A stretch of DNA of 45,150 nt from Candidatus Moraniibacteriota bacterium (GTDB lineage: Bacteria > Patescibacteriota > Minisyncoccia > Moranbacterales > GCA-2747515). Each line of letters opens with the position of its first letter. Position 1 is the first letter of the stretch. The stretch covers positions 1,141,449-1,186,598 of the forward strand of contig CP065011.1 in the NCBI GenBank assembly GCA_016699795.1. The letters are read 5' to 3'. Below the pieces are notes generated by a model. It made no database searches, was not told where the DNA came from, and saw only the letters and a program-made list of their open reading frames with translations. Positions 13,567 through 23,969 of this stretch are shown piece by piece. The position numbers and the translations under genes are program-made.

Positions 13567-14562
13567 TTATAAACTCGTCACACCCGTTTCTTTCATACTC
13601 ACTGGAAATTCTTTTATTTCTATAGATTTTTTTTCTTTATCAAACATCACATTAACGACAAGTCCTTTTTTTACAGAAGTGTCAAAATACTGATCAAAAA
13701 TAAAATTTCCTAAAGAATAATAAATAGTTTTTCCTTTATATACTTCTTTTTCTTGAATTACGTGAGGATGTGATCCTATTATCAAATCTGCACCCTCATC
13801 AATAAATGCATGCGCAAATTCTTTTTGTTTCTGATTGGAAATTGTTTTATACTCTTCTCCCCAATGAGTATAAACAATAACAAAATCAGATTGCTTTCTT
13901 TCTTCTCTTATGTGAAATAATGTTTCCTGCAAAGAAAAAGATGAAAACTGATTATAACTTACAAACGATAACATTACTCCTTGTATATTTTTTCGAAACG
14001 TGGTTTTTCCAGCAATTTCATCAAGAGCACCGAAATAATCCAAAGAGTTTTTTTCCAAATAATTTTGCGTCGAACGAATACCCTCATTACCAAAATTTCC
14101 TATATGATTGTTCCCCAAATGAGCAATTCGCATATTATATTTTAAAAGAAAAGAGACACTCATTGGATCAAAAGTGAAATAATAATTATCTCGAGAACCT
14201 ATGGCACTTTTTTCTGATCGAGAAGGATTCTCTGTTATAGGACCTTCCAGATTCATTACCACAGCATCACTTTTTTGAAGAATATTTTGACTATCTTGAA
14301 GAAGAAAATCATAGCCATTTTTCTTTGCAACCGTTCGGATATACCGATCTAACATCACATCTCCTACAAAAAGCACCGATGCTTTTTTAGAGAGTTCTTT
14401 TTCTTCTTGAAAAACTTGGTCTTTTATTTCTTCAGATAAAACTAATTTTTTTCCATCACTTTCCTTTTCGATAGGAAAAATGTTTTTTCCCAAAAGAAAT
14501 AAAAAGAATCCCAAAAAAGAAAGAATGAGAATAAATTTTAAATACTGTTTATTTTTCTTCAT
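13567..14562 (-). CDS. CapA-family metallophosphoesterase (poly-gamma-glutamate synthesis CapA-like), membrane-anchored
   Basis: Motifs FVGDVMLDR, MNLEGPIT, HLGNNH, YTHWGEEY, GADLIIGSHPHV and YSLGNFIFDQ, plus an N-terminal TM segment. Confidence 0.85.
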   Translation of the reverse strand: MKKNKQYLKFILILSFLGFFLFLLGKNIFPIEKESDGKKLVLSEEIKDQVFQEEKELSKKASVLFVGDVMLDRYIRTVAKKNGYDFLLQDSQNILQKSDAVVMNLEGPITENPSRSEKSAIGSRDNYYFTFDPMSVSFLLKYNMRIAHLGNNHIGNFGNEGIRSTQNYLEKNSLDYFGALDEIAGKTTFRKNIQGVMLSFVSYNQFSSFSLQETLFHIREERKQSDFVIVYTHWGEEYKTISNQKQKEFAHAFIDEGADLIIGSHPHVIQEKEVYKGKTIYYSLGNFIFDQYFDTSVKKGLVVNVMFDKEKKSIEIKEFPVSMKETGVTSL

Positions 14563-15529
14563 AAGGAAGTGTCGCTACTATACCAAAATAACTTGTTGTT
14601 TGTTCGAATGGCTTTCCTGTGAGCACACCCGAGTCTGTATCATACAAAACATGGAGTTTATTAAAGCCTGTTTTTTCCATCGTTCGAAGAAAAATTTCTA
14701 ACGTTTCAGGAGAATCCACATTTTTATCATCGAATGATCGAATACTCGTATAATCATATGATTGCATAGCTTTCAAAGTTTCTTTATTTCGAATTTTTGC
14801 TTCCTTATTTGAAAGATAATGCGAGAAATCAAGAGAAGCTATAAATAAATTCTTTCCTTTTTTGTCCGAAAAATTCGAAAGAATCTGACTCATAGTTTCC
14901 ACCATTTCATTCTCTGTATCCATTCTCACCAAAATAGGAACTACTCGAGCATTCGGGAAAAAAAACTTAACATGAGGAAGAATTCCAGAAATAGAATGCT
15001 CTCCTTCTAATACCTGAGGATTATTTTTTACAAAAGAATTTTGTAAAAGCGAATGGATTTTTTGTCCTTCACAACCAAAAGTACCCAAAGAAGTTTCCCA
15101 ATTATAAAGACTTGTAGTAAAAAACGTTTTTCCTTTTCGATAATGATCGGGACCTATTACAAAAACCGTTTCGATACTATCCGAGGAAATTGACTCTAGA
15201 GTTCCAGCAATAATACGACTAGCCAATAAATGATGAGGGATAATTACACCACCAACATTTTCATTTGCATATTTTTTTCCTGTTTTTTCGTTTTTGGTAC
15301 GAAAAAAGAGATCCTCATCAAAAAATCGATTTGTGTGTAGACCATTTTGACATACCATTTCTTCATTGTTCGAAAAACTTTCTTTTTCAGATGCAACAGA
15401 CAAAGAATTAGTGTTCTTGTAGAAGAAAATCCCCACCGTAACACCACATAATAACAAAGTAATGGTTATCCCAAACGCAATATTTTTATTCATTCGTATT
15501 ATTCTTTTTTTCATCCATTTTTTCTTCAT
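14549..15529 (-). CDS. MEMO1 / AmmeMemoRadiSam system protein B-like, membrane-anchored
   Basis: Motifs GGVIIPHHLLAS, VFVIGPDHY, EHSISGILPHVKFFFP..VVPILV and ASLDFSHYL follow the Memo-family metal-site pattern, with an N-terminal TM segment. Alternative starts at 15514 or 15493 would reduce the overlap with the upstream gene. Confidence 0.7.
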   Translation of the reverse strand: MKKKWMKKRIIRMNKNIAFGITITLLLCGVTVGIFFYKNTNSLSVASEKESFSNNEEMVCQNGLHTNRFFDEDLFFRTKNEKTGKKYANENVGGVIIPHHLLASRIIAGTLESISSDSIETVFVIGPDHYRKGKTFFTTSLYNWETSLGTFGCEGQKIHSLLQNSFVKNNPQVLEGEHSISGILPHVKFFFPNARVVPILVRMDTENEMVETMSQILSNFSDKKGKNLFIASLDFSHYLSNKEAKIRNKETLKAMQSYDYTSIRSFDDKNVDSPETLEIFLRTMEKTGFNKLHVLYDTDSGVLTGKPFEQTTSYFGIVATLPYEEK

Positions 15530-18500
15530 TTCCTACGTTATTTTCAGTGTTCGAGTTATCTTCTGTTATGTTATTATTCTCTTTTTCATTTTCGAATTCT
15601 TCTTTTTTTCCCTTATTTAAGGAAAGAATTATCGCTTTTATACCAAAACCAACAGAAATAGCTCCAATAAGAAACAATATCATTGAAACAATATTTTTAA
15701 AAATACTGGATAAGTTTTTTTGTTGTTTATCTTTTTCTTGATGAATAAAATATTCAGATTCTTTAGCCAAATCTAACTTCTCAACAGCAGTTCTTCCATA
15801 TACTTTGGGTTCATACATAAGCGATACAGTCGCTGGAGGTGCGAAAAACGTTCCAGCATGAGTCACTCGTGCCTTATAAGAATACCTTCTTATATCTGAG
15901 TCTGAGACTCCTTGGTCGGAAAAGATAACTCCATTTTTTGTATATTCTTTTTGTACTTGCCAATAAGAATCTTCCCAACCACTATAATTACCTTGAGACA
16001 TTTGCTCATTTTTCATCTTCGTATTCACCGGAACCATTCCCGAAGGAAGTTGATCCTCTAATACAATATATTGTGATTCTGGTCGAATACCCGTTACTTC
16101 AAAGACAATATCAATACTATCTCCTACTCCAAAAGAATATTTTTCTCCTTTCGTATTTTTATATGATCGAGTGATGGTTAATCCTTGCGATTCTTGTGAT
16201 TCTTCCATATTCGTTCGATATTCTCGAATCAAAAGAGTAGAAAAAATATTTCCCTGATCTGAAGTAATTCTTGCCTTGATATTTCCATTTTTGTCCGATT
16301 CAGAAAGAGGAAGTGCGATAGTGTCAAATTGATTCTTCGCATCAAAATATCCTCGTGCAACTTCTTTATCAGCAAGAAAAACTGAGTATGAAGAGGGTTT
16401 TTGATCTTGTCTTTCCAATCGAGCATATTCTGTAAGTCCTTGAATAACTTGTGCCGTAGCAAAAGTATTATGCCAATGTTGTTCCGTTCTATTTCTTGTA
16501 AGATACCTCACTATACCCACAATCATTTCACGGTCACCACCACCCATTACCAAAGCTCGAAGTCCCATTCCTGTAGAAGCAAATACTGAGCCAAAGTGAT
16601 CCTTATTTCCAGTAGGAAAATAAAAAGCATCGCCTTCCTTTTGAAGTCTTGCCTGTAAGATATCTATTCCATTTTCAGAAGTATCGGTATATCCATTTCG
16701 AATATTAGTCATAACAGCATAAGAAAGTATATCTGGCGTTGCCTGGGAAGGAAAAAAATTAATCTTTTCTTTTGTTGTATTTTTCTCAAAAAGTGATCTT
16801 CCGTAGAGAGCCAAAACAGTCTTATCATAATTATCTTCACTCATTTCCACACTCTGTTCTTGGAAAAATCTCCTAGCTATATCAAGGACAACTTCATCAA
16901 CAGGAAAACCACTCTTTTGAGCTCGAAGAAGATATTCTGTGACATAAACACTCACAAAAATATCTGACTCTCCATAATTACCCCACCAGTTCCAGCCTCC
17001 ATCTTCATTTTGCATATTTAAAAGACGTTTCACGCCTTCTTCCAACATTTTAGAAATATTTTTATCTTCCAAAATTTCCTTATAAAAATCAGAGTTTTCT
17101 TTGGCAATAACAGTAGGAACAAATCGACTCGTTGTTTGTTCCACACAACCATAAGGATAATCGACTAAATATTTCATAGCTGAAGGAAGAGAACCTACCA
17201 ATGTAGAAGAAATATTTAATTCAAACAAAGATTTTTCAAGATAGCTATCGTTATGAAGACTAAAAGTATATTCTTTCTCCCCTTCTCCTCCAAAAGCCTG
17301 CTGATCCCAAAATCCCTGTTTTATAATAGGAAGGGAAAGCGTAACAACATCCCGAACAGACTCATCATTGATATCTTGTAGAGAAAAAGATATTTCATGT
17401 TTTTCTTTCTCCTTCTTTGGTTGTATTTTCCAAAAAACTCTCTGTGATTTTTCAGATTCTAAAGTAATTTTCTTTTCACTTTCTTCCACATCCCCCCCAT
17501 CGGAAAAATCTAAATTAACACGAAATGTTCTCTCTTTATCGCTAAAATTTTGAATAAGAGCAGTGAGATACAAGGAATCCCCTTTATAAAGAATTCTTGG
17601 AAGTTGTGGCCGGATAATAACATTTTTAGATACAATAATTTCATTTGTGGCATTTCCAACTTTTGCGTCTTTCGTTGCAGAAACAGCAGAAAGCACCCAC
17701 GTAGTGAGATTATCAGGAACGACAAAAGAAACAGTAGCTTTTCCATTTTTATCTGTTTGAATAGAAGGGTTCCAATAAGCCACATCTTCAAAAACTGTTC
17801 GTGCATCTCCTCCATCCTTACCATTATGAACCCAGAATCCATTCGCAAAATATGAATAATAAGTATCGATTTCTAGATTAAAAACATCCATCGAATCTCG
17901 TTTCCAATCGAGAGTTTCCACAACGACATTTTTTCCTTCTTTATCAACCAAAACATCTCCTTTTCGTATTTCATCTGCACGTTTCCATATGCCATTAGCA
18001 AAGAGAATGTGATTTGTAGTCACACGAAGATTCTCATTAAACGTTATATACCCAGAAACTTTTTGATGATGCGTTTTTTCTACCTGTGCCGAGATGAGCG
18101 TTGCATCTGTCGAACTTTTTCTTGTTTGTATCCATTCACCCATTTGAACATCTTTTATCGATTTTTCTGAACCATCCGCCATAAGAATTTGTGTATCTCC
18201 AGAAAAACATCCCCCCATTTCGGCAGTGTTAATTCCAATACCTTCAAGAGAATGTGCGTCTTCAGTACCATTCCACCTAAGTCCCCAAAATGTTGAAGAG
18301 ATATCTAAAGTATTTGCATCAGAAAGTTCAAATATTGCCTTATCAACAGCCCAAAGTGTAACTTCTGCTTCTTGAGGAATTCCTTTTTTATTTTTTACAT
18401 CCAAAGATACTGTAACTGTTTCCCCGGGTTCATAATGATTCTTATCCGGAGTAATACTTATATCAAGCAATTCAGAATCCGTAGAGACTTTAATTTCTTT

Positions 18501-20570
18501 TTGCACATCTTCAAGGGAATTATTATTAAAACTCGAAACATTTAAAAATATATTAGGCATATCACGTTCCCCGATAGATTCTTCCCATACAGTATCTTTT
18601 CCTGAAAGAGAAAGTACTTTATAGCGGTGGACATATTCTCTTTCAAAAGTAACAAAAACATCTCTTTTGGAAATATCTGAAACGAGTTTTATTTCTGCTT
18701 TTTCTCCTGGATTATATTTTTCTTTTTCAAGTAATATATTTAGAAGAGAATCCTCACCACTCGGGGAAGAATCATATCCATTCTCATCAACTATCCAAAG
18801 ATAAAATTTCTTTCCTACAACATTTCCTTGATCATCCATTCCCGAAACAAGAACAGAATAAGATCCTTCATGGGTAGGGGAAAATTCAATAGAAGCTTTC
18901 CCTTTTTTATCTGTTTTTATTTTCCAGGTATCTAATATTCCTTCTTTATTTTCAAAACCGTTTGGGAACTCATATTTATCAGCATTTTTCTCCCACCATG
19001 AATAGGAAACATCCACAGAAAGATCTCTTCCATCAAGAGAAGTATCTCTGAACGCATGGAGTTGAATATCTATTTTTTGTTTTTCTCCAACACGACTCCC
19101 GTACCATTCATTATCTCGATATATTCCAAAGTCAGCACTTCGTACAAGAACATTTTTTCTTTCTATAACAGACTGTCCTGTTTCTGACTCCATTACCATT
19201 TCAATTCCATATATTTCTGTAGCATTTTGAGTATTTTTTGCCAAAAATGAAATAGTTCCTTCTCCATTATCATCAAGAACTATCTCTTCTGAAAGATTCT
19301 CTTCTTCACTATAGTATCCATAGAAATTATTACTATCATCTTCTTCAGTAAAAAAATCATATTCATAATAAGCACTCTGAGACACCTTATAAGAAACCTT
19401 TTGTCCAGAAACAGGCTCTCCAGAAAAATAAGAACCCTTCACATTCAAAGTAATTTCTTCTCCCGAAATAATCTCTTTTTCAGTTACAAGTTCAGCATCA
19501 AGTCCGAACTCTGGTTTTTCGTAATATTCTATAGAGAAATAATTAGATGAAGAGGGGTAATCTTCCTCATTCGAACCCTCAAAATACACATCCAAATTAT
19601 ATCCACCAGTCTTTACACTTTCAGGTATTTGAAATTCTCCATCAAAAGAACCTTTTTCGGAAATAGTATATGTTTTGGTAAAAATAACCTCTCGCTCTTC
19701 TCCCCAACCAGAATATAACTCTACACGAGCCGATCCTTTGGGAATACTATAGCGAACATCATCATCTTCTCGAAGTATCGATTTAAAATAAATCTTATCT
19801 CCAGGTTGATACATCGGTCTATCTAAAAAAAGAAATGATTTTTGACTAGGAACACGTTTATCAAAGATAGTATAATCCCCCCAACCATAATTCAGATATC
19901 GCAAATTAAGAGGAATCACTGCGTATGATCCACCATATTCTGCTACCGCAATATCATAATCCTGAGAAAGAGGAGTTATCGCTATACCATCATCACCACT
20001 AGAGGCGAGCTCTTTTTCAGAAACTTTTTCTCGCAAATTATATACACGAATATTTGCCCCAGCGACCGATCGTTTCGTTTCGAAGTCTTGTGTCCAAAAA
20101 ATAAATTCATTATCCCCTTCTTTTGCAATTGTCCCAAAAGTCGAACGAATAACAAAAGAATATAACGATTCCTTTTCACTATAAATATGTAATAAAAAAA
20201 TTCCACTTTTCTCTAAGGGCAAAGTAACTCGTCCATTTGAATGAGGAAGAGAAATAATTTTTGTTAATTGAGAAGGATCGATGATAAAGGATTTTTGCTC
20301 TTTTTCTTTCTCATATCGAAGAAATTCAAGGACTTTTCCAATATTTGATCGATAGACATCCACCGTTATTTCTCCTGAGATATTCTCTCCTCCTACATTT
20401 ACCACAGGTTCATCCGTAGAGGCTATAGGTATAATTCCATTTCTTTCATACATATTCTGACCATATACATAGAGATATGGGTCATCATTTCCTTGAGCTT
20501 TCGCAGTACATTCAACTCTCAAAAAAAGAAAAGAAACAAGAATCCAAAAAAACAAAGAAGGATATTTCAT
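15486..20570 (-). CDS. Alpha-2-macroglobulin family protein (thioester-containing) with an inserted Hint domain and a C-terminal membrane anchor
   Basis: It has an N-terminal signal peptide (MKYPSLFFWILVSFLFLRVECTAKAQ) followed by long beta-rich MG-like repeats. The conserved post-bait segment is ARTVFEDVAYWNPS...VPDNLTTW. The thioester motif YPYGCVEQ has its Cys codon at 17147..17145. A C-terminal TM segment (IVSMILFLIGAISVGFGIKAIIL) precedes an acidic, Asn-rich tail. Confidence 0.9.
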   Translation of the reverse strand: MKYPSLFFWILVSFLFLRVECTAKAQGNDDPYLYVYGQNMYERNGIIPIASTDEPVVNVGGENISGEITVDVYRSNIGKVLEFLRYEKEKEQKSFIIDPSQLTKIISLPHSNGRVTLPLEKSGIFLLHIYSEKESLYSFVIRSTFGTIAKEGDNEFIFWTQDFETKRSVAGANIRVYNLREKVSEKELASSGDDGIAITPLSQDYDIAVAEYGGSYAVIPLNLRYLNYGWGDYTIFDKRVPSQKSFLFLDRPMYQPGDKIYFKSILREDDDVRYSIPKGSARVELYSGWGEEREVIFTKTYTISEKGSFDGEFQIPESVKTGGYNLDVYFEGSNEEDYPSSSNYFSIEYYEKPEFGLDAELVTEKEIISGEEITLNVKGSYFSGEPVSGQKVSYKVSQSAYYEYDFFTEEDDSNNFYGYYSEEENLSEEIVLDDNGEGTISFLAKNTQNATEIYGIEMVMESETGQSVIERKNVLVRSADFGIYRDNEWYGSRVGEKQKIDIQLHAFRDTSLDGRDLSVDVSYSWWEKNADKYEFPNGFENKEGILDTWKIKTDKKGKASIEFSPTHEGSYSVLVSGMDDQGNVVGKKFYLWIVDENGYDSSPSGEDSLLNILLEKEKYNPGEKAEIKLVSDISKRDVFVTFEREYVHRYKVLSLSGKDTVWEESIGERDMPNIFLNVSSFNNNSLEDVQKEIKVSTDSELLDISITPDKNHYEPGETVTVSLDVKNKKGIPQEAEVTLWAVDKAIFELSDANTLDISSTFWGLRWNGTEDAHSLEGIGINTAEMGGCFSGDTQILMADGSEKSIKDVQMGEWIQTRKSSTDATLISAQVEKTHHQKVSGYITFNENLRVTTNHILFANGIWKRADEIRKGDVLVDKEGKNVVVETLDWKRDSMDVFNLEIDTYYSYFANGFWVHNGKDGGDARTVFEDVAYWNPSIQTDKNGKATVSFVVPDNLTTWVLSAVSATKDAKVGNATNEIIVSKNVIIRPQLPRILYKGDSLYLTALIQNFSDKERTFRVNLDFSDGGDVEESEKKITLESEKSQRVFWKIQPKKEKEKHEISFSLQDINDESVRDVVTLSLPIIKQGFWDQQAFGGEGEKEYTFSLHNDSYLEKSLFELNISSTLVGSLPSAMKYLVDYPYGCVEQTTSRFVPTVIAKENSDFYKEILEDKNISKMLEEGVKRLLNMQNEDGGWNWWGNYGESDIFVSVYVTEYLLRAQKSGFPVDEVVLDIARRFFQEQSVEMSEDNYDKTVLALYGRSLFEKNTTKEKINFFPSQATPDILSYAVMTNIRNGYTDTSENGIDILQARLQKEGDAFYFPTGNKDHFGSVFASTGMGLRALVMGGGDREMIVGIVRYLTRNRTEQHWHNTFATAQVIQGLTEYARLERQDQKPSSYSVFLADKEVARGYFDAKNQFDTIALPLSESDKNGNIKARITSDQGNIFSTLLIREYRTNMEESQESQGLTITRSYKNTKGEKYSFGVGDSIDIVFEVTGIRPESQYIVLEDQLPSGMVPVNTKMKNEQMSQGNYSGWEDSYWQVQKEYTKNGVIFSDQGVSDSDIRRYSYKARVTHAGTFFAPPATVSLMYEPKVYGRTAVEKLDLAKESEYFIHQEKDKQQKNLSSIFKNIVSMILFLIGAISVGFGIKAIILSLNKGKKEEFENEKENNNITEDNSNTENNVGNEEKMDEKKNNTNE
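17823..18209 (-). other. Hint / mini-intein-like autoprocessing domain (aa 788-916 of the A2M ORF), +1 residue Gly
   Basis: Block A is GG|CFSGDTQILMADG, block B is RVTTNHIL (TxxH), block F is DVFNLEIDTYYSYFANG, and block G is FWVHN followed by G (GGT 17822..17820). There is no homing-endonuclease insert. Confidence 0.8.
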
Positions 20571-20858: not shown

Positions 20859-23800
20859 ATGCAATGGAAAGAGAAAAAGATTTCGATACTTCTTTTCGGA
20901 ATGTTTTTTTTGTTTTTCTCTTTGATTTCTCCTATTTTTGCACAGGAGACAGAAGAGCAAACACAAGAATCATTAAGAAAAGATCAGATACTCTTTAAAG
21001 AACCAACAGAAGAAGAATTAAAAGCTTCCAAACCCGATACTACAACGGAAGTTATGGATGCTCGTATTCTTTCTCAAAGAGGAAATGTTTTTGATATAGA
21101 ATTTTCTCTTACGAATGGATTAGGAATACAACCTGATGTTCGTTATAGCATACGTCTTGTAGATGGAACGACTAATGATTTCTATTTCGCAACTCTCGAT
21201 GAAAAAATATATCCTGAAATCATTTCTTTAGGAGAAAATGCTTCCCTTAAAAAACAAATTACCTATACAGCTCCAGAGTATCTTTCGGGAGAATACACAC
21301 TTTCTCTTTTTGCTTCCAATAGTTCTGGAAGACTTCTTAGTCTTAATACAGTAGGAGAAGGAAAGATAACACTTACTTCTTCTAAACCTTTTGTATTTAT
21401 TGAAAGAAAAAGTTGCAAACTTAGTGTAAAAGGAGAAGCAGGAAAAGAATATACTCTTGAACAAGGACTTGATGTAAAAAAAGAAGAAACCATGCTTCTT
21501 ACTTGTGGAGTAAAGAATAATACAAAAGAGAAACTCACTCTTATTCCTACTTTCAAAACATTTGAGCGAAATAGTTTCGGAAAACCCATAGAAGACATTC
21601 CGGCTTCTCAAGAACAATTTATTCTTAATGCTGGAGAAACAAAAACACTCACTCTAGAAGTTCCTTTGGCAAACATCCCTCAGGCTTACGATACAAAACT
21701 GAGTTTTACAAATACAGAAAACATTCCTTCCAATGAAATCATTAGTCACTATGTCATACAGGGAAAGAGTGCGACCATAGGTAATCTTCTTTTAGATAAG
21801 AAATCTTACACAAAAGGAGAAACAGCAAATGTTGAGCTTTTTTGGTCTGGATCTGCTGATACTTTTTTTGGTTCTCGAGCAGGACTTCAAGAAAAAGAAG
21901 ATATCATAGCAAGTATTCTTCTTTTGGATGAAAAGAATACTCCTTGCACACAAGAATCAAAGACTGTTTTAAATAATCTCAATAGAAACAAAGCTTTCAT
22001 TCAAATTCCCATAATTGCAGAATGTCCTTCTTACCAAGCTCAAGTAGATATGAGAGATGCGAATGGAAATGTTCTTGCGCAAAAAACCTATTCTTTTTTG
22101 AAAGTACAAGAGAAAGGAATAAATGATTTAAGAGAAAAAGCTTTAATCAACGAAGAAGAAAGAAATCCAGTTTTTCTTTTTCTTTCTCTTAGTGTTTTTC
22201 TTTTGCTTGTTATGCTTATTCTCTTCGTAGTAAAGAAAAGAGGAGGAAGAAAGAGTGTGCAAAAAATAGTTTCTTTTCTATTCTTCTTGGGGTTTTTTTC
22301 TGTAGGATTGATGACGAATGTTCATGAGGCGGATGCGGCATCACAAACTGCAGACTACGGGGCGTGTGTGACGTATTATTCAGCAAAAGACTGGAAAATC
22401 GAAGATTGTACCCAAAATCATAAAACAGCCTTCTTTAGTAAACCTGATGGCATTGTATGGTCTGGAGCACCAGGGACATATCCTGCTTTTACATTCATAG
22501 ATTATGGCTATACCCTTACGATTTCCACAGAAAAATCAGTATATCAAGATAATGAGGGAATAAAGTATAATTTTTCTTTGAGCAATGTTGCTCATGGAGG
22601 CTCTTTAATACTAGGACAACGAGATCTTAGTTGTCCCGACATGGCCTTTGGTTGCGGTGATATAATTCGCTATACTCAAAATATTCATTGGAGTAATGCA
22701 AGTAGCGTGATTAGTGAACCCGCCCTGCTTTTGGGATATACTCATGTACACTATATGTGCTACAGCACTAATGGTAAACCTAATGAGTTTGACATTCCTG
22801 TTGGCATGTGGGAACAAGAAACGTATGGAAAATATGGCCCCAAATTTGTAGGCAAAACGGGAATAAATTTTTACGTTAAAATTAAAGGAATTTATGATTC
22901 TCAGTGGGACTCTTGGGACGGCTCTTGTGGACTCGCTGATAGAGGAAAATATCAAGATAAATCTGAAATAAAGGGAAGTGATTTATGTAATACCTATCCT
23001 CTTCCTAGAAATGGACTCCCGACATCCCCTCTTCCTATTTCTTCTCCTACTACTGAGCTTATAACTCTTAAGGGTAATAAATTTACATGGTCTTGTCCGG
23101 GAAATTGCTACGGAGAAGCAGATCAATGTAGTGCAGATTATGTTGTGGGCGTTTGTGGCTCCGCCAATGGGACTCATCCCTATTATGAAACAATATTTGC
23201 TCCAGGGAGAGATCAATTCTGTAGTTCAGGAACAGCTAGTCCTGTAAAACCAATTTTTCCAAATGTTCAAGGAGGTTCTGTTTCTTGGACGTGTGACAAA
23301 ACCTTTTGCACTGCGTATCGCGGACTTCAAGGTGTGTGTGGATCTGCTAGCGGGAACTCATTTGAAACGTTAACCCCTACCTCTCCTAATATGTGTTCTC
23401 GGGGATCAGTAACAGGATTTAAATTAGTAGGATCTACTTTCAGTTGGGTTTGTGCAGGTTCAAATGGAGGGCCTAATTCTCTTCCTCCCTGTTCAGCAAA
23501 TAAATCTATAAGTCCTCCAGAAGCAATAAATGGAAAATGTGGAACGAATTCAGACAATTATTCTTGTTCTACTAATACATATCCTGGTGGGGGAACATTT
23601 TGTGCACTTGGAACATTAAGCCCTCCTTCACCACTACCAGACTTTCCTGTTCAGGGAGGTGTGGAAACTTGGGACTGTCTAGGTGAAAATGACGGCACGA
23701 AAGCGCCGGGGGGTTGTATAGCAAAAAGAGATGATGTTAGTCAAGTTTCTTGTAAAGCAGACATATCTTGTCTTAAAGGAAATGTGAGTGAATATGATGC

Positions 23801-23969
23801 AGGTCAGCTTTGTGGCACAGGAAATACTTTTGCGATTGGGGGGAAACCAAAATATGCTTCTGGGGAATGGACATGGACCTGTCAGGGGAATAGCTGCACA
23901 TCTCCTCCAAATCAAACTAAAGAATGCAAAGCTCCTCAATGTGCAAAATACGAAGAAGTAGCTCCGTAA
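20859..23969 (+). CDS. Giant surface protein: signal peptide, N-domain, internal TM hairpin, Cys-rich repeat C-domain ending in YEEVAP
   Basis: The signal peptide is ...FFSLISPIFAQE. The internal segment at aa 437-494 is TM, KKRGGRKSVQK, then a hydrophobic stretch ending VHEADA|AS. Repeated C-G-S-A-x-G ... W-x-W-x-C modules follow. It is a paralogue of 42283..45150. Confidence 0.85.
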   Translation: MQWKEKKISILLFGMFFLFFSLISPIFAQETEEQTQESLRKDQILFKEPTEEELKASKPDTTTEVMDARILSQRGNVFDIEFSLTNGLGIQPDVRYSIRLVDGTTNDFYFATLDEKIYPEIISLGENASLKKQITYTAPEYLSGEYTLSLFASNSSGRLLSLNTVGEGKITLTSSKPFVFIERKSCKLSVKGEAGKEYTLEQGLDVKKEETMLLTCGVKNNTKEKLTLIPTFKTFERNSFGKPIEDIPASQEQFILNAGETKTLTLEVPLANIPQAYDTKLSFTNTENIPSNEIISHYVIQGKSATIGNLLLDKKSYTKGETANVELFWSGSADTFFGSRAGLQEKEDIIASILLLDEKNTPCTQESKTVLNNLNRNKAFIQIPIIAECPSYQAQVDMRDANGNVLAQKTYSFLKVQEKGINDLREKALINEEERNPVFLFLSLSVFLLLVMLILFVVKKRGGRKSVQKIVSFLFFLGFFSVGLMTNVHEADAASQTADYGACVTYYSAKDWKIEDCTQNHKTAFFSKPDGIVWSGAPGTYPAFTFIDYGYTLTISTEKSVYQDNEGIKYNFSLSNVAHGGSLILGQRDLSCPDMAFGCGDIIRYTQNIHWSNASSVISEPALLLGYTHVHYMCYSTNGKPNEFDIPVGMWEQETYGKYGPKFVGKTGINFYVKIKGIYDSQWDSWDGSCGLADRGKYQDKSEIKGSDLCNTYPLPRNGLPTSPLPISSPTTELITLKGNKFTWSCPGNCYGEADQCSADYVVGVCGSANGTHPYYETIFAPGRDQFCSSGTASPVKPIFPNVQGGSVSWTCDKTFCTAYRGLQGVCGSASGNSFETLTPTSPNMCSRGSVTGFKLVGSTFSWVCAGSNGGPNSLPPCSANKSISPPEAINGKCGTNSDNYSCSTNTYPGGGTFCALGTLSPPSPLPDFPVQGGVETWDCLGENDGTKAPGGCIAKRDDVSQVSCKADISCLKGNVSEYDAGQLCGTGNTFAIGGKPKYASGEWTWTCQGNSCTSPPNQTKECKAPQCAKYEEVAP

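Follow-up and report, generated by a model that had tools for sequence, protein, structure and literature searches.

What becomes of an alpha-2-macroglobulin (A2M) when a domain related to protein-splicing elements lies in its bait loop? This question is raised by a gene in a 45,150-nt stretch of the genome of a Candidatus Moraniibacteriota bacterium (contig CP065011.1, positions 1,141,449 to 1,186,598; this whole stretch is called the window below), which encodes a thioester-containing protein of the A2M family carrying an inserted Hint domain. Judged by its sequence, the insert is a Hint domain that shows the features by which type A bacterial intein-like (BIL) domains are defined. The best explanation overall, which we hold at a probability of roughly 0.5, is that a vertically inherited, type A BIL-like Hint domain in the bait loop would excise itself, after which the flanks would be rejoined.

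The Hint domain and its place in the host protein

The features that carry the argument all lie on the minus strand (positions are those of the window; counts out of 58 refer to the Hint-bearing members of an 86-sequence alignment of homologues; pLDDT is the predicted local distance difference test score):

15486..20570, minus strand: thioester-containing alpha-2-macroglobulin family gene, an open reading frame of 1694 amino acids (aa)
18324..18743, minus strand: A2M bait-region domain (Pfam A2M_BRD, aa 610-749; 53.6 bits, cut-off 22.7)
18210..18272, minus strand: N-terminal flank of the bait loop, aa 767-787, NGTEDAHSLEGIGINTAEMGG, with Gly-Gly at -2/-1; aa 775-785 have pLDDT < 50
17823..18209, minus strand: 129-aa Hint domain with type A BIL features, aa 788-916 (Pfam, NCBIfam, AF2, PDB profile search, Foldseek)
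18207..18209, minus strand: Cys788, Hint residue 1, the N-S acyl-shift nucleophile; invariant in 58/58
18009..18020, minus strand: block B, T851-T-N-H854, with Thr and His invariant
17877..17879, minus strand: Asn898 of block F (V-Y/F-N-L), invariant in 58/58; CthBIL4 also has Asn (VYNF)
17823..17828, minus strand: His915-Asn916, the C-terminal His-Asn of block G, invariant in 58/58; Asn is the cyclizing residue
17802..17822, minus strand: C-terminal flank GKDGGDA (aa 917-923), with Gly917 at +1 and Lys918 at +2; aa 919-929 have pLDDT < 50
17772..17801, minus strand: post-bait motif RTVFEDVAYW (aa 924-933), which opens the second half of the MG domain
17136..17150, minus strand: thioester motif GCVEQ, aa 1141-1145 (Cys1142, Gln1145), from the translation

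Translation of 17823..18209 yielded 129 residues, CFSGDTQILMADG...VTTNHIL...DVFNLEIDTYYSYFANGFWVHN, in which the Hint block sequences are CFSGDTQILMADG, VTTNHIL, DVFNLEIDTYYSYFANG and FWVHN. The Asn916 codon occupies 17825..17823, and codon 917, GGT at 17822..17820, encodes Gly, a non-nucleophile at the +1 position. The translation thereby bore out what the original prediction had read from the letters, namely the extent of the domain (aa 788-916), its four blocks, the Gly917 codon, the GKDGGDA spacer and the distance of 226 residues from Asn916 to the thioester residue Cys1142.

Profile and structure searches identified the insert as a Hint domain. As an isolated 156-aa segment, it matched the Pfam families PT-HINT (49.9 bits, cut-off 27.7, E 5e-13), Hint (36.0, cut-off 29.7), Hom_end_hint (35.0, cut-off 32.1) and Vint (30.3, cut-off 27), while NCBIfam intein_Cterm scored 18.7, above its cut-off of 15.6. 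For aa 772-934, an AlphaFold2 (AF2) model based on 40 sequences of the family placed 125 residues at pLDDT >= 90 in an all-beta Hint fold with disordered flanks. Upon comparing this model with the PDB by Foldseek, we obtained the best match with Tetrahymena BUBL BIL2 (E 2e-12, TM score 0.73-0.78), followed by the C. thermocellum BIL 2LWY (TMt 0.85) and then by mini-inteins, with Hedgehog 1AT0 ranking 27th; there were 65 matches at E <= 1e-3, and the 50 listed were all BIL, intein, Hedgehog or Vint domains, all of the Hint fold. A family-profile search of PDB sequences gave 2LWY (1.1e-17) and BIL2 (6TMM/6Y75; 1.3e-17) ahead of the Mtu RecA intein (~4e-10), such that the sequence-profile and fold searches rank the relatives alike, with BILs before inteins. 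With its Hint fold and blocks A, B, F and G, the insert belongs to the HINT superfamily, and the prediction of a Hint or mini-intein-like domain lacking an endonuclease held up on the profile scores, the modeled fold and a fixed length of ~129 aa. No further Hint domains were found in the window.

The host is a bacterial A2M of the ECAM type, with MG domains, a bait-region domain, a TED with CxEQ and a C-terminal MG10 (phmmer against ECAM, E 2.5e-22). Pfam assigned MG2 to aa 245-335, A2M_BRD to 610-749, A2M to 931-1020, TED_complement to 1129-1235 and bMG10 to 1463-1588, and the order along the chain is signal peptide, MG domains, BRD, Hint, A2M/MG8, TED, bMG10 and a C-terminal transmembrane (TM) anchor. 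The two terminal elements are predictions read from the sequence:

20496..20570, minus strand: predicted N-terminal signal peptide, MKYPSLFFWILVSFLFLRVECTAKA
15618..15692, minus strand: predicted C-terminal TM anchor, IVSMILFLIGAISVGFGIKAIILSL, followed by a K/E/N-rich tail

With these two elements, the protein is probably exported, and the Hint domain would then fold and act outside the cytoplasm. Cysteine occurs just three times among the 1694 residues, as C21 in the signal peptide, C788 at Hint residue 1 and C1142 in the thioester motif; because C21 sits in the signal peptide, the only cysteines of the mature protein would be those of its two thioester-forming sites.

Several alignments placed the insert in the bait loop. 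By phmmer, query residues 536-775 aligned with ECAM chain residues 665-909 and query residues 943-1226 with chain residues 959-1251 (chain numbering is UniProt minus 22, with CLEQ at UniProt position 1187), and only query 776-942 and ECAM 932-980 were left unaligned around the insert. In elastase-cleaved ECAM, the bait is disordered over R923-L942, and R956, G958 and N963 are part of the cleaved bait (PMC4498604), so that the ECAM bait comprises R923-L942 plus R956-N963; MAFFT put query R765-E784 opposite R923-L942, with the Hint domain directly after. On the other side, seven residues (GKDGGDA) separate the Hint C-terminal junction from the RxxFxDxxxW motif. The first residue of this motif, R924, aligns with R732 of human A2M (6TAV), just beyond the human bait at 690-728 (PMC8267569), and with alpha' chain residue 16 of C3b. 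For aa 600-1125, the AF2 model, whose best structural matches were C3, ECAM, SaA2M, C5 and CD109, showed beta-sandwich domains, the BRD helices, a linker at aa 775-785 (pLDDT < 50), the folded Hint domain (pLDDT 80-94), a second linker at aa 919-929 (pLDDT < 50) and then the next MG domain. Taken together, the phmmer and MAFFT alignments, the equivalence of R924 and the AF2 model indicate that the insert occupies the bait loop, the topological place of the anaphylatoxin (ANA) domain in C3, C4 and C5. The predicted bait-region position was thus confirmed by the alignments with ECAM, human A2M and C3b alpha' and by the disordered linkers on both sides.

Class and conservation of the insert

The insert is a conserved trait of a family. 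A Hint domain stands at the same column in 58 of the 86 best homologues that were aligned, and C788, T851, H854, N898, H915 and N916 are invariant in all 58. An exhaustive HMMER search with the Hint domain alone against 1.8 billion representatives returned 5919 matches. From the top 150 of these and the earlier homologue set, we assembled the single-Hint proteins of >=1400 aa (n = 135), of which 134 could be scored and form the basis of all counts out of 134. The N-terminal junction has GG at -2/-1 before the Cys in 132/134 proteins, Lys stands at +2 in 129/134, and the spacing from HN to the R..F.D motif is 4-10 residues. The length of the domain is 129 aa in 104/134 and 126-130 aa in 133/134, with a single outlier of 154 aa, indicating that a homing endonuclease was never present.

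The +1 position argues against an ordinary intein. It is occupied by Q in 59, D in 34, G in 16, E in 14, N in 5, S in 3, K in 2 and L in one of the 134 proteins, that is, by Q, D, G, E or N in 128 and by a non-nucleophilic residue in 131. These comparative data exclude a read error at codon 917 and uphold the earlier argument that the canonical class 1 route is barred. An ordinary class 1 mini-intein whose +1 Ser or Cys had been lost by a sequencing error or a recent mutation could be imagined from GGT, which is one substitution away from AGT and TGT, and from the three homologues with Ser at +1. However, Q, D, G, E, N, K or L stands there in 131/134 homologues from independent assemblies, position 4 of block F is Asn and not the intein-typical Asp in 58/58, and the profile fits BILs seven orders of magnitude better than inteins; furthermore, there is no homing endonuclease or remnant of one, and the insertion falls in a variable surface-protein loop and not in a conserved catalytic site. 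The mini-intein explanation is already refuted by these comparative data. A canonical class 1 intein would carry Cys, Ser or Thr at +1, which Gly917 is not, and the signs of a selfish intein were likewise missing, given the fixed 129-aa length, the co-divergence with the host (r = 0.77) and a host site in the variable bait loop.

Type A BIL domains are defined by Cys1, a C-terminal His-Asn and no +1 nucleophile (PMC4031507; the absence of +1 Cys/Ser/Thr is also described in PMC7664689). The insert combines Cys788, His915-Asn916 and Gly917 at +1 with a closer relationship to BILs than to inteins. It resembles CthBIL4 (2LWY) in Cys1, in the T..H of block B and the V-Y-N of block F, in the C-terminal His-Asn and the lack of a +1 nucleophile, and also in a size of ~130-140 aa without endonuclease and a position in a variable region of an exported protein. 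It differs from type A BILs in its new host and site, the A2M bait loop, in its near-invariant GG at -2/-1 and Lys at +2, and in its vertical descent across many Patescibacteria lineages, whereas BILs are scattered.

The original prediction had left the choice between a BIL and a Hedgehog-type domain, of which the defining features and the nearest relatives support the former. The Hog domain of Hedgehog shares the Hint fold, the GG/CF N-terminal junction (a slash marks the junction here and below) and the N-S acyl shift, but it lacks the terminal His-Asn, possesses a sterol-recognition extension and is a weaker structural match. As His-Asn is invariant in the family, as there is no sterol-recognition or adduct region, and as the A2M body resumes after seven residues, Hedgehog-type processing was ruled out. 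A pretoxin Hint domain serving toxin release was rejected as well: Pfam PT-HINT does match, but what follows downstream is A2M/MG8-TED-bMG10, with no toxin domain.

The nearest relatives of this Hint domain outside the A2Ms are proteins with two to five Hint domains in tandem, often linked only by VHN/KGGG/CF (P0121-P0126, P0128, P0129, P0132, P0136, P0141 and P0142), in which the GG/C and HN/K junctions recur. Their partners are Tim44-like, PKD, Big_9 or pilin N-methylation domains. They look like arrays of back-to-back self-processing domains, for which we know of no described role.

Not every Hint-bearing A2M has a thioester. The GCxEQ motif is present in 108/134 proteins and absent from 26/134, most of which make up a sub-family of greater length (~1720-1900 aa) whose Hint domain lies at ~950-1250; these proteins retain the Hint domain, the HN/DK (HN/DKGG) junction and the R..F.D motif. 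Two of them, P0083 and P0085, carry a Big_5 domain, and P0181, P0186 and P0191 are likewise among the 26 thioester-less proteins.

In public databases, Hint-bearing members are annotated only as 'alpha-2-macroglobulin family protein'. A scan of GTDB species genomes, with taxon labels as in the source records, found the Hint-plus-motif arrangement in Moraniibacteriota, WWE3, Magasanikbacteria, Parcubacteria/Paceibacterota, Buchananbacteria, Saccharibacteria and Peribacteria and, within Microgenomates, in Daviesbacteria, Woesebacteria, Amesbacteria, Woykebacteria and Blackburnbacteria. Forty further GTDB loci with A2M-Hint come from metagenome-assembled genomes, mostly third-party annotation (TPA) records, labeled Gammaproteobacteria, Pseudomonadales or Bdellovibrionales (e.g., L008, L013, L014, L017-L020 and L022). 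Since these loci have the same GC range as those labeled as Candidate Phyla Radiation (CPR), and since a Memo gene lies downstream in 26/40 of them compared to 23/40 of the CPR-labeled loci, their non-Patescibacteria labels are doubtful and probably wrong.

Descent, Hint-less orthologues and gene neighborhood

Eight close homologues lack the Hint domain (P0034, P0042, P0043, P0048, P0055, P0057, P0060 and P0063) and have a penta- to hepta-glycine bait core in its place (e.g., AEKGGGGGDVR). Such an oligo-Gly bait is unusual for a protease trap and could, speculatively, suit Gly-Gly endopeptidases. The site sequence, AEKGGG-GGDVR, corresponds roughly to the two flanks joined without their +1 and +2 residues, so that the Hint-less form would fit a deletion between the flanking runs of Gly codons.

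In a neighbor-joining tree on the host columns, from which the Hint domain was excluded and which is rough, distance-based and without support values, these eight proteins nest at >=3 places within the Hint-bearing clade, and the basal proteins (P0064, P0083 and P0085) are Hint-bearing. This topology indicates one old gain followed by repeated loss; ~88% of the clade members retain the domain. Pairwise identities of Hint and host correlate (r = 0.77), with a mean of 49% for the Hint domain and 41% for the host, and the GC content of the Hint segment (0.36-0.38) is unremarkable against the 0.32-0.39 found across the gene. A recent horizontal acquisition was ruled out by this GC content and this co-divergence, and the domain appears to have been inherited vertically and under purifying selection.

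The gene neighborhood bears on whether the Hint-less proteins are orthologues. Two genes follow the A2M gene in the window:

14549..15529, minus strand: Memo-like gene (PF01875) with an N-terminal TM segment, overlapping the A2M 3' end by 44 nt
13567..14562, minus strand: PGA_cap (CapA-like) gene, a frequent third cluster member

The order of A2M, an overlapping or adjacent Memo-like gene and usually PGA_cap was found for the Hint-bearing proteins of the window, P0025 and P0046, for the Hint-less P0048, P0060 and P0043 and for the thioester-less, Hint-bearing P0083. We found the A2M-Memo cluster in 49/80 GTDB loci with enough downstream sequence, and A2M-Memo(-PGA_cap) is also conserved at loci L002, L003, L005, L087, L088 and L089. 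For the three Hint-less proteins checked, the shared context rules out paralogues and points to orthologues. On the other side of the A2M gene, a divergent gene (20859-23969, plus strand) encodes 1036 aa; its product, for which there was no Pfam match, combines a signal peptide and an internal TM segment with a C-terminal half that contains Cys-rich repeats.

Fate of the flanks and meaning for the family

What would the domain do to its host? Since the N-side residues (Cys1, Thr/His) are as invariant as those of the C-side (His-Asn), processing probably takes place at both junctions, with excision of the Hint domain as the outcome. We regard it as probable that the domain is catalytically active and excises, and its self-excision after export as the most likely event. 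A catalytically silent Hint domain could instead act as a folded plug or decoration of the bait, with foreign proteases cutting only the flanking linkers, which are predicted to be disordered and accessible; as all residues for the N-S acyl shift and Asn cyclization are invariant over many Patescibacteria lineages, we consider this very unlikely.

In type A BILs, splicing runs through thioester formation, Asn cyclization and attack by the freed C-flank amine (PMC4031507, PMC7664689). From this chemistry and the invariant catalytic residues, we propose three steps for the A2M. After export and folding, Cys788, aided by Thr851/His854, would turn the Gly787-Cys788 bond into a thioester. Asn916, aided by His915, would then cyclize, breaking the Asn916-Gly917 bond and freeing the Hint domain. 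As there is no Cys, Ser or Thr at +1, a branched ester cannot form, and the third step would be an attack of the released C-flank amine on the Gly787 thioester, which would rejoin the flanks. This amine could be the alpha-amine of residue 917, as in the published BIL route, or the epsilon-amine of Lys918, yielding an isopeptide as in BUBL BIL2. Ligation would leave a short Gly-rich bait, …AEMGG-GKDGGDAR…, the counterpart of the oligo-Gly bait in the Hint-less orthologues; human A2M is native and inducible when its bait consists of Gly-Gly-Ser repeats (PMC8267569). In an alternative fourth step, the thioester would be hydrolyzed or taken by another nucleophile, leaving a severed bait, which in A2Ms is the activating event.

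The lysine route is suggested by the near-invariant Lys at +2 together with the GG, which recall BUBL BIL2 and make an isopeptide 'splice' possible. In that Tetrahymena thermophila protein (6TMM, 6Y75), a lysine epsilon-amine resolves the GG-thioester of the N-flank into an isopeptide (PMC8616854). Besides being the top Foldseek match and an equal-best sequence match, BIL2 shares an N-flank ending in Gly-Gly; it differs in being eukaryotic and cytosolic and in having ubiquitin-like domains on its flanks, and the use of a lysine by the A2M Hint domain is only a possibility. We also considered that Lys+2 might serve the TED thioester as acceptor once the chain is cleaved, for which the engineered K704 of human A2M offers a precedent of auto-conjugation (PMC8267569), and found this idea weakened, as the 26 Hint-bearing proteins without a thioester conserve Lys+2 to the same degree.

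That ligation is the main physiological outcome seems possible to us, at somewhat less than an even chance. It is favored by the viability of Hint-less orthologues in an identical genomic context with a continuous oligo-Gly bait, by the short, length-constrained, Gly-rich flanks and by the splicing competence of type A BILs. On this last point the statement in the original prediction that domains of this kind cleave or transfer rather than ligate is not supported, as type A BILs can splice by attack of an amine on the thioester (PMC4031507). The outcomes that it listed (cleavage, self-triggering and transfer) are retained below as alternatives, but the list was incomplete in omitting ligation.

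Several points weigh against excision with rejoining. Cleavage products of type A BILs dominate in vitro (PMC4031507), such that ligation may be a minor product, and the operon structure and orthology show that the Hint-less protein is viable, not that both mature forms are identical. The bait loop tolerates replacement (PMC8267569, PMC9918453), and a neutral splicing element would be easily lost from it, yet ~88% of the clade retains the domain, which hints at a benefit beyond simple splicing. The role of Lys+2 is not accounted for, and the tree that underlies the descent has the roughness already described.

The first alternative is that the domain acts as a cutter alone, with the Gly787 thioester hydrolyzed and/or Asn916 cyclized, and that the flanks are not rejoined. 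The outcome could be a C3-like two-chain protein, or a self-fired conformational change that exposes Cys1142-Gln1145 without an attacking protease, for example in a covalent adhesin or trap whose firing is timed or depends on a signal. In vitro, type A BILs mostly cleave, with splicing possible by aminolysis (PMC4031507, PMC7664689), and bait scission triggers A2M capture whatever the catalytic mechanism of the cutter (PMC9918453, PMC4498604). The C-terminal junction, seven residues before R924 (C3b alpha' residue 16), lies at the place of the C3a/ANA domain, and the ~88% retention would also fit, because sloppy deletions in the loop should be tolerated. However, Hint-less orthologues from the same operon have an intact bait, constitutive firing would waste a single-use trap, and the equal conservation of the domain in the thioester-less sub-family (26/134) argues for a role that is not solely thioester release. 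Hence, we consider cleavage or self-activation as the main outcome rather unlikely.

A second alternative is conjugation in trans, in which an external amine or nucleophile, such as a lysine of a target or an amine of the cell wall or of a host surface, resolves the Gly-Gly~S-Cys788 thioester and the N-terminal 787-residue fragment becomes attached through Gly787, as happens with the ubiquitin-like domains of BUBL BIL2 or with cholesterol in Hedgehog. The GG at -2/-1 (132/134) resembles the ubiquitin-like GG end used by BIL2, and BIL2, which together with 2LWY is closest among the solved structures, attaches its own N-flank to lysines on other proteins (PMC8616854). By contrast, the invariant His-Asn and Lys+2 would be unnecessary for N-side transfer alone, and Hedgehog-type domains indeed lack the terminal Asn; the acceptor is only hypothetical, and the GG may be a mere flexible linker. 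This outcome is therefore highly doubtful. A combined variant, a built-in convertase, would have a nucleophile of the target (a host-cell surface or an attacking protein) resolve the Gly-Gly thioester; the same event would tether the 787-residue fragment via Gly787, sever the bait and fire the A2M body, including the Cys1142-Gln1145 thioester where present. We hold this variant to be unlikely.

Comparison with known A2Ms sets the bait apart as well. ECAM/YfhM (4RTD, 4ZIQ, 5A42) and SaA2M (4U48) share the MG/BRD/TED/MG10 architecture and the CxEQ thioester, and their bait, too, is disordered and lies between the BRD helices and the following MG strand. ECAM has a plain bait of 40-50 residues, an N-terminal lipoprotein anchor and pbpC as neighbor (E. 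coli yfhM), whereas the protein studied here has the Hint domain in its bait, a signal peptide without lipobox, a C-terminal TM anchor and Memo-like and PGA_cap neighbors. In C3, C4 and C5, too, a folded domain, the anaphylatoxin, stands at the bait position, and activation follows when this domain is removed at the bond immediately before the R-x-x-F-P-E-x-W segment; ANA is cut out by an external convertase, whereas the Hint domain could in principle remove itself, and the two domains are not homologous.

In the open-access literature, we found no paper linking macroglobulins with Hint, BIL or intein-like domains, and a patescibacterium study in mBio (2026) goes no further than citing the SaA2M structure. 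The earlier remark that no described A2M of this arrangement was known therefore holds for the open-access literature, but the homologue search shows a family trait across Patescibacteria and not a peculiarity of one genome. BIL domains and bacterial A2Ms are each known; what is new is the conserved placement of a BIL domain in the bait loop.

BIL domains have been known since 2003, mostly from variable regions of secreted bacterial proteins, and we know of no established physiological role for them. To our knowledge, scission of the bait is the trigger of every A2M, C3 and thioester-containing protein (TEP). As the consequence of a chain break is well understood at the bait, BIL function could be directly testable in the A2M-Hint family. 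If the Hint domain only splices, the family would present a deeply conserved, endonuclease-free and nucleophile-free splicing element in an exported protein, of use to studies of how +1-independent ligation evolved and to its engineering. Should it cut, the result would be a protease-independent activation of a thioester protein, analogous to the release of C3a. If the built-in convertase were true, episymbiotic Patescibacteria would possess a self-activating, double-warhead, complement-like protein for attachment or defense, and BIL domains would have their first clear physiological role. Overall, the retention of a 5-kb A2M gene, mostly with its Hint domain, in many lineages of Patescibacteria with small genomes suggests that this protein matters for their cell-surface biology.

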